A stretch of 64,000 nt of DNA from Escherichia coli (GTDB taxonomy: Bacteria; Pseudomonadota; Gammaproteobacteria; Enterobacterales; Enterobacteriaceae), in NCBI RefSeq assembly GCF_051903065.1, contig NZ_CP178438.1. One strand, 5' to 3'. Both the position numbers and the translations under genes were made by a program. Below the pieces are notes generated by a model. That model was not told where the DNA came from and did no database searches. It was given only the letters and a program-made list of their open reading frames with translations. Positions within the stretch are counted from its first letter, which is position 1. Every line of letters begins with the position of its first letter. Shown here in pieces: positions 8,131 through 26,450 of the stretch.

Positions 8131-8212
8131 CGGGCGGATAAGGCGTTTTCGCCGCATCCGCCGCTCTGTACACAATGCCTGATGCGACGCTGGCGCGTCT
8201 TATCATGCCTAC
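8131..8212. repeat. REP/BIME palindromic units downstream of proX
   Basis: cgggcggataaggcgttttcgccgcatccgcc and gcctgatgcgacgctggcgcgtcttatcatgcctac REP consensus palindromes. Confidence 0.8.
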
Positions 8213-24068: not shown

Positions 24069-24569
24069 TCAGTCGGCAAAATTTCGCCAAATATCCTGGA
24101 TATCTTCCATCAGATAGCCACGATAGAGCAGAAAACGCTGGATCTTAACTTTTTCTGAAAAGACAGTTGGCAAAGGTTCACCATATTTTCGCGTCGCCTG
24201 ATCGCGCGCCAGTGCGCACCAGTCGATGTCACATTCACGCATCGCTTTTTCTGTCGCTTCGCGGGAAATACCTTTCTGATTCAGTTCCTGGCGAATACGC
24301 GCAGGTCCATAACCTTTGCGGCTACGGCTGGCGATAAAGCGCGCAACAAATCGGCTGTCATCGAGATAGCCATGTTCATGGCACCAGGTAATAACGCGCT
24401 CGTAATCTTCTGCCGTAGCATCAATCTCTTCTGGGCCATTTTTGCCCATAATCGGTGCCGCGAGTTTACGTCGCAGTTCTTGCTCACTGTGATCGCGCAC
24501 CGCCAGAATGCGTACCGCACGATCCAACAGGCGAGCATATGCCGGGCGACGGGACGTTGATTCTGTCAT
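24069..24569 (-). CDS. recX: RecA inhibitor RecX
   Basis: 166 aa ORF immediately downstream of recA. Confidence 0.95.
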
Positions 24570-24617
24570 GGCATATCCTTACAACTTAAAAAAGCAAAAG
24601 GGCCGCAGATGCGACCC

Positions 24618-24790
24618 AGGTTTTGCTGATAAACAGATTTAATAGTCAATGAGTGTGCAGAATGTTCCCGCAGGCCCAATTCGTTAGAGGATCGAGGTGA
24701 GAGTAATTTTTCACGCCAGTGCTGGCCTGTTCCCCTCACCCTAACCCTCTCCCCAAAGGGGCGAGGGGACCGTCCGTGCACACATTATCT
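24618..24790. repeat. About 170 bp extra segment in the recA-recX intergenic region with a GC-rich imperfect palindrome
   Basis: Flanks match my recollection of the K-12 recA terminator sequence (ggcatatccttacaacttaaaaaagcaaaagggccgcagatgcgaccc ... gattaaaaatc); internal ccctcaccctaaccctctccccaaaggggcgagggg. Element family not identified. Confidence 0.5.
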
Positions 24791-24811
24791 ATTATCATCA
24801 ATAACGAACGA

Positions 24812-25952
<1,141 letters not shown>

Positions 25953-26450
25953 TCAAGTGTTTTGTAGAAATTGTTGCCACAAGGTCTGCAATGCATACGC
26001 AGTAGCCTGACGGCGCACCGCATCACGGTCGCCGCTGAAGCATTCCCGCCGGGTAATGCCTTCACCGCGGGCAGTGGCAAAAGCAAACCAGACGGTGCCG
26101 ACAGGCTTCTCTTCACTGCCGCCATCCGGCCCGGCGATACCACTAATAGACACGGCGTAATCAGCACGAGCCGCTTTCAGTGCGCCTATCGCCATTTCCA
26201 CCACGACGGGTTCGCTCACCGCGCCATGCTGCGCCAGCGTCTCTTCGCGTACGCCGATCATTTGCGCTTTGGCTTCGTTACTGTAGGTGACAAATCCGCG
26301 TTCAAACCAGGCGGAACTGCCGGCAATATCGGTAATCACTTTCGCTACCCAACCGCCGGTACAAGACTCAGCAGTTGTTACGGTTGCGCCACGGGCTTTC
26401 AGCGCCTGCCCAACCTGTTCGCTTAACTGCATCAGTTCACTGTCAGTCAT
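25953..26450 (-). CDS. pncC: NMN amidohydrolase (CinA-like C-terminal domain)
   Basis: ORF 25953..26453; MTDSELMQLSEQ start; 165 aa. Confidence 0.9.
   Translation of the reverse strand: MTDSELMQLSEQVGQALKARGATVTTAESCTGGWVAKVITDIAGSSAWFERGFVTYSNEAKAQMIGVREETLAQHGAVSEPVVVEMAIGALKAARADYAVSISGIAGPDGGSEEKPVGTVWFAFATARGEGITRRECFSGDRDAVRRQATAYALQTLWQQFLQNT

Follow-up and report, generated by a model that had tools for sequence, protein, structure and literature searches.

The spacer between recA and recX in the analysed Escherichia coli DNA (the window, a stretch of 64,000 nt) contains a 190-nt segment that belongs to the BoxC family of intergenic repeats, is present in some strains and absent from others, and leaves the recA terminator in its place. 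The best explanation of the observations as a whole, and one that we consider quite probable, is that the segment is a full-length palindromic BoxC pair, composed of one type A and one type B unit, which lies at a hot spot of repeat turnover, downstream of the recA stop codon and ahead of the recA terminator, and is close to neutral. The element is real but ordinary, and what is new may be only the locus, that is, a BoxC element between recA and recX.

The genes alaS (21311-23941), recX and recA are all encoded on the minus strand, and the spacer is bounded by the following coding sequences.

24069-24569, minus strand: recX, 166 aa, taken from the ORF list and from the RefSeq annotation of identical DNA; the protein is present in the collection as E. 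coli RecX.
24812-25873, minus strand: recA, 353 aa, stop codon at 24812-24814, taken from the ORF list and from RefSeq at the homologous position.

The RecA protein has exact matches on many E. coli contigs. The spacer occupies 24570-24811 and is 242 bp long, compared with 68 bp in K-12 MG1655 (recX start at 2822639, recA stop at 2822708), and the first-pass annotation, which had put the excess over K-12 at about 170 bp, was correct in this respect. The surrounding gene order, luxS-gshA-csrA-alaS, is normal and is the same in strain IAI1. Two mechanical open reading frames of 71 and 51 aa run across the element (24566-24781, minus strand, and 24719-24874, plus strand), and no RefSeq gene is annotated over it in the two long-allele genomes inspected. 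Some public RecX gene calls have an N-terminal extension (191-207 aa instead of 166; P0001, P0002, P0005-P0008), and at least one assembly with an extended call contains frameshifted recA fragments; these calls are irrelevant to the window, because an in-frame stop is located four codons upstream of the recX ATG.

The segment has the following features of the BoxC family.

24732-24767, minus strand: an intact BoxC/PIT/TMECO type A unit, reading CCCTCGCCCCTTTGGGGAGAGGGTTAGGGTGAGGGG on the recA sense strand and containing the HPG1 G-quadruplex motif.
24665-24703, plus strand: a type B BoxC arm in decayed form, inverted relative to its type A partner and located by alignment with six canonical copies.
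24623-24801, no strand assigned: the outer inverted repeats of the element, TTGCTGATAA ... TTATCATCAA, which are the inverted repeats I1 and I7.

The type A unit is identical at 36 of 36 bases to the MG1655 TMECO copies nos 7, 11 and 15 (Table 1, PMC4666352), and it displays the complete three-block architecture within about 36 nt: a C-rich block, a loop, GGGGAGAGGG, a TTA loop, and GGGTGAGGGG. The HPG1 sequence GGGAGAGGGTTAGGGTGAGGG (PMC5100583) is matched exactly at 24733-24753 on the minus strand, with the C-rich block CCCTCGCCCC 3 nt upstream of the match, as the HPG1 motif prescribes. The motif picked out in the first-pass annotation lies at 24733-24769 and occurs once in the window, with zero occurrences expected from shuffled sequence. 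The A/B arrangement and its spacer align with those of canonical inverted pairs; however, the pair is a decayed one, as 14 of 47 conserved columns are changed in the type B arm and no G3 run is left there, against 3 changes in 57 columns in the type A arm. In the alignment with six double copies, the homology extends over about 180 bp and includes the outer inverted repeats, which are homologous to the ends of other full-length copies; the double copies at ygfF-gcvP, yggN-yggL, gldA-yijF, alx-sstT and fepB-entC align with the segment end to end.

In a sensitive search with the segment, 5,399 genomes contained related sequence, the median number of places per genome being 15, and the copies inspected (ygfF-gcvP, yggN-yggL, gldA-yijF and alx-sstT) are all intergenic. 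The earlier suggestion of a small interspersed intergenic repeat is confirmed by the full TMECO match and by this dispersal, and the contrary case, a motif lacking additional copies elsewhere, does not hold. Elsewhere in E. coli, the best-matching copies reach no more than 89% identity, over about 95 nt, and no source copy was found. Rfam returned no match at E<=1 in 23900-26000 and none within the spacer when the whole window was scanned at gathering thresholds; elsewhere in the window, the gathering-mode matches were naRNA4 (a REP325-type repeat), the MicA sRNA and five clustered tRNA genes (8132-8209, plus; 16866-16937, plus; 19851-20575, minus).

The name BoxC reportedly originates from Bergler 1992. 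The repeats were discovered in the 1990s; Maher's group later came upon them again as PIT (potential intrastrand triplex) elements, and the name TMECO was then introduced (Holder 2015, PMC4666352). That article cites Bachellier 1999 and Hoyne et al. 2000 (Maher's group) for BoxC and PIT. MG1655 has 23 TMECO copies, either of type A (loop TTA) or of type B (loop CCG), and five sites with an inverted A+B pair; palindromic pairs tend to lose one motif, and a hairpin can still form (PMC4666352). The same sequences were found as the G-quadruplex motifs HPG1 and HPG2 by Kaplan et al. 2016 (PMC5100583), whose text does not mention BoxC, and oligonucleotides of identical sequence form a triplex or a G-quadruplex in vitro (PMC4666352, PMC5100583). 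Our literature search found no paper mentioning a BoxC element between recA and recX, and the names recA, recX and oraA were not found in the supplements of Holder 2015. The recA-recX copy is missing from K-12-based lists because the locus is empty in K-12. Possibly it is already among the 63 TMECO loci that Holder 2015 left unnamed, and the long allele has been present in public genomes such as IAI1 for years.

Alignment of the window and one other long-allele genome with two short-allele genomes placed the boundaries of the extra DNA next to the recA terminator.

24588-24617, minus strand: the recA intrinsic terminator, a stem-loop GGGTCGCATCTGCGGCCC at 24617-24600 followed by the U-tract.
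24618-24627, minus strand: the new junction 5' of the terminator stem, reading AGCAAAACCU in recA mRNA.

The long-allele segment 24618-24807 (190 nt) stands in place of 16 nt, a net gain of 174 nt. The 16 nt of the short allele that are replaced, TTGTGTATCAAACAAG (plus strand), lie past the recA stop codon and before its terminator. Comparison of the filled and empty alleles revealed no target-site duplication or flanking direct repeat at the junctions; with 16 nt swapped for 190 nt and no direct repeat, a clean insertion into an empty site is rejected. Thus, of the insertion of about 170 bp described in the first-pass annotation, the extra DNA stands, whereas the clean insertion does not, and the proposed end at 24790 falls about 17 nt short of the actual boundary.

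The terminator itself is unchanged between the short and long alleles and still adjoins recX; its hairpin and U-tract are identical in both, in line with the conserved terminator flank of the first-pass annotation, and it is conserved in Salmonella and C. koseri as well. Because the terminator is intact beside recX, the extra DNA sits within the recA 3'UTR, upstream of the terminator. The native hairpin at 24617-24600 is the sole terminator-like site in 24400-25000. The bases just 5' of its stem change from GAUACACAA in the short allele to AGCAAAACCU in the long one, the two junction forms ahead of the same terminator being GATACACAA versus AGCAAAACCT. The junction sequence AGCAAAA is complementary to UUUUGCU of the terminator, and the predicted fold of the local terminator hairpin amounts to -19.0 kcal/mol in the long allele versus -16.6 kcal/mol in the short one.

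In this position, the element would be transcribed as part of the recA 3'UTR, and a hairpin of about 130 nt would fold ahead of the terminator.

24655-24785, minus strand: a long imperfect hairpin of the two arms within recA mRNA, as predicted by folding.

The long-allele spacer, folded in the recA sense, is predicted to reach -99.1 kcal/mol (z = -5.1) with both the element-long hairpin and the terminator hairpin kept; the K-12 spacer reaches -20.1 kcal/mol, and a 131-nt stretch over the core of the element -65.8 kcal/mol (z = -6.2). The core 24655-24785 gives a predicted -61.5 kcal/mol in the sense orientation versus -45.5 kcal/mol in the antisense one, whereas in canonical copies the two orientations differ little. 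Of the 14 changes in the decayed arm, five are G>A, corresponding to C>U in the sense RNA, and maintain G.U pairing. Selection for the RNA hairpin, hence a function, is one possible source of this asymmetry; C deamination on the non-template strand of a gene that is highly transcribed would account for it just as well, and the sample of about five G>A changes is too small to choose between selection and deamination.

Expression of recX is said, after Pages et al. 2003, to depend on read-through of the recA terminator, and the first-pass annotation had proposed that the insert could shift the recA:recX ratio. This proposal found no computed support: the terminator is intact, the element contains neither a sigma-70-like promoter nor a U-tract terminator, and the published tests were negative. 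A scan of 24400-25000 found no sigma-70-like promoter in or near the element, and the element as a promoter of recX is therefore rejected; a second terminator within the element is rejected as well, no hairpin followed by a U-tract being found there. As summarised in PMC4666352, Maher's group detected neither promoter nor terminator activity in PIT elements and saw no effect of them on RNA polymerase; those tests concerned copies other than the recA-recX one, placed in different contexts. An effect of the element on recX read-through is possible but unsupported, since PIT elements lacked promoter and terminator activity in these tests. Two features keep a shift of the recA:recX ratio alive as a hypothesis, namely the predicted hairpin of -62 to -66 kcal/mol and the altered sequence directly ahead of the terminator stem. 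Most likely, the element would be a nearly neutral passenger, neutrality being our assumption, which at most might modestly shift recA mRNA stability or recX read-through through the added hairpin and the changed junction.

A stronger role is unlikely in our judgement, although it is the likeliest of the alternatives. The element may be a functional 3'UTR regulator, whose hairpin, possibly an RNA G-quadruplex, would alter the decay of recA mRNA, e.g. through cleavage by RNase III or a block to 3' exonucleases, and, together with the A-tract-like junction, would change terminator efficiency and hence the recA:recX ratio in long-allele strains. Such a regulator is consistent with the predicted stability of the hairpin (z of about -6), with pairing being kept on the sense strand only, with the G-rich, G4-capable strand being the recA sense strand (PMC5100583), and with the pairing of AGCAAAA to the U-tract in a more stable local hairpin. 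REP elements located in 3'UTRs can terminate transcription partially and stabilise the mRNA (bioRxiv 10.64898/2026.03.23.713779), and recX shares a transcript with recA (Pages et al. 2003, as cited in PMC3062782). However, the earlier PIT/BoxC tests argue against a regulator, the strand asymmetry is explained equally well by deamination, and 70% of strains do without the element.

The distribution of the two alleles was determined with a 601-nt query across the spacer, which matched 5,425 of 5,426 complete E. coli genomes. The match was full-length in 1,634 of the 5,426 (30%), which carry the long allele, while the other matches sampled consisted of two pieces spanning 426-427 nt versus 601, a net difference of 174-175 bp. 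The majority is short, so the possibility that most E. coli have the same 242-bp spacer, which had been raised together with the call for this comparison, does not hold. Among the named strains checked singly (IAI1, K-12, O157:H7 and Nissle 1917), the B1 reference strain IAI1 has the long allele, and K-12, the sampled O157:H7 strains and Nissle 1917 have the short one; an O145 strain is also long. The short allele occurs with spacers of 68 nt and 67 nt, one T apart in the terminator U-tract (TTTTGCTTTTTT versus TTTTGCTTTTT; L135:2563-2630 and L141:2563-2629). The sampled O157:H7 genomes probably carry the 67-nt form, to which they are assigned because their span is 426 nt, not 427. This one-T difference could affect recX read-through.

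Comparison of ten 4-kb loci together with the window and K-12 placed the long allele on at least two flanking haplotypes, the flanks of the window being closest to those of locus L141, which has the short allele with a spacer of 67 nt, one T less than in K-12. The presence of the long allele on at least two haplotypes points to later spread between E. coli backgrounds by homologous recombination.

The same site is variable outside E. coli. The recA-recX spacer is 116 nt long in Salmonella and 106 nt in C. koseri, where it has a REP-like palindrome, and a third allele of 239 nt is found in the cryptic-clade Escherichia sp. E4742 and in CP055649 (L153:262-500, L154:262-500). In Salmonella, C. 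koseri and E4742, the variable stretch lies between TAATCGT, just past the recA stop codon, and the conserved terminator. In the E4742 allele, the short-allele 16-mer comes first and is intact; it is followed by a second, degenerate copy of the terminator stem (GGGGCGCATCTGCGAC), by two REPs that make up a BIME, and, last, by a CAGCAAAACCT-terminator junction, which is the junction of the E. coli long allele. The E4742 allele resembles an insertion with a target duplication of about 30 nt. The E4742-type BIME allele was found in none of the 5,426 E. coli genomes. The E. coli long allele and the E4742 allele may share part of their history.

Two further loci behave similarly. The full BoxC pair is present in only 65 genomes at yggN-yggL and in 641 at gldA-yijF, and in the one representative inspected per locus the alternative allele is a BIME rather than an empty site (L004:1500-1680 compared with L151:255-390 for yggN-yggL, and L005:1440-1620 with L152:240-370 for gldA-yijF). 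At yggN-yggL, the two alleles have their outer sequences in common, GATTGATAACAAA ... TTTGTCATC, as though what lies inside had been swapped. Together with recA-recX, where the BIME is that of E4742, these are three sites at which BoxC pairs and BIMEs are alternative occupants, and each seems to adjoin a terminator or a terminator-like hairpin. It has reportedly been noted already that boxC insertions occur at polymorphic BIME sites (Bachellier et al. 1997, in Genetics). Hypervariability around TMECO elements has been described, with no transposase found (Holder 2015, PMC4666352).

From these observations, a bolder hypothesis may be put forward, to which we give little credence: the recA-recX copy would be a domesticated RNA element, whose sense hairpin is kept by G.U pairs while the DNA palindrome decays and which, together with the new junction 5' of the terminator, sets a different recA:recX stoichiometry, and, linked to this, BoxC and BIME cassettes would be interchangeable and swapped by an undescribed hairpin-targeted mechanism that replaces palindromic repeats in bacteria. 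If the domesticated reading were true, about 30% of E. coli, IAI1 included, would have a different SOS/recombination set-point.

Returning to the BoxC pair as a near-neutral occupant of a turnover site, we take the short arrangement for the ancestral state in Escherichia and the two long alleles for derived ones, because the E4742 allele still holds the short-allele 16-mer. The pair would have arrived by a replacement or recombination-type event and not by cut-and-paste transposition. A classical MITE, recently transposed into the site by an IS-encoded transposase, would share with the element a length of about 180 bp without coding capacity, long terminal inverted repeats (I1 and I7), many dispersed copies, and presence/absence polymorphism. 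Nevertheless, we find this origin very improbable: 16 nt are missing at the site rather than duplicated, the low identity to the closest other copies does not suit a recent arrival, no associated transposase was found (Holder 2015, PMC4666352), and the alternative allele inspected at yggN-yggL and at gldA-yijF is a BIME instead of an empty site. Scarcely credible is the reverse course, with an ancestral long allele from which the 68-bp spacer arose by deletion: palindromes are deletion-prone, motifs of this family are frequently lost or partially deleted (Holder 2015, PMC4666352), and the copy looks old, having diverged from all others, but a simple deletion cannot yield the short allele, because the 16-mer of the latter is not contained in the long one, E4742 keeps that 16-mer intact beside a different insert, and the sampled short-allele genomes are diverse (K-12, O157:H7, Nissle 1917).

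Compared with known systems, the element is closest to BoxC/PIT/TMECO/HPG, with which it shares the 36-nt three-block motif, the intergenic location, the arrangement of an inverted, though decayed, A+B pair with about 28 nt between the units, multi-copy dispersal, and strain-to-strain polymorphism of the surrounding intergenic DNA. It differs from other members in its heavily mutated type B partner and in its position in what would be a transcribed 3'UTR, ahead of a terminator controlling the regulator gene that follows. REPs and BIMEs are likewise palindromic intergenic repeats found between a stop codon and the next gene, at the same kind of site; however, BoxC has triplex- and G4-capable purine blocks, which REPs lack, and no REP consensus palindrome (of the GCCGGATGCGGCG...CGCCTTATCCGGCCTAC type) is present in 24618-24807. 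The RAYT/TnpA-REP system goes with REPs, and we know of none for BoxC. MITEs such as ERIC/IRU, Correia/NEMIS and YPAL are also small, with long inverted repeats, an RNA hairpin when co-transcribed, and insertion polymorphism, whereas the recA-recX element has no target-site duplication and no known transposase. ERIC and RU-type elements have no sequence similarity to it. The elements RU-1, RU-2 and RU-3 of Delihas were considered and rejected, RU-3 (Delihas 2007) being a BIME and unrelated; Delihas 2011 mentions neither BoxC nor recA.

recA and recX determine how far the SOS/recombination machinery is raised and how far it is restrained. The locus offers a natural variant with a structured 190-nt element in the recA 3'UTR of about 30% of sequenced E. 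coli, absent from K-12. If the element has no effect, this would add support for BoxC elements as inert passengers; if it has one, RecA:RecX numbers based on K-12 would not be transferable to a sizeable share of the species. In addition, its three alleles (empty, BoxC pair and BIME) make the locus a clean example of the turnover of palindromic repeats beside terminators.

Finally, the core motif is not confined to enterobacteria. The pattern CCCTCACCC-N3-CCCTCTCCC, followed by GGGAGAGGG or GGGCGAGGG, was seen as a multi-copy repeat in distant phyla (L011-L090), and among the listed contig matches to CCCTCACCCNNNCCCTCTCCC were Archangium, Afipia, Candidatus Contendobacter and an unclassified MAG. 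The wide occurrence of the motif has been reported before (Holder 2015, PMC4666352). The motif copies of Contendobacter include inverted pairs that are like the A+B pairs of E. coli.
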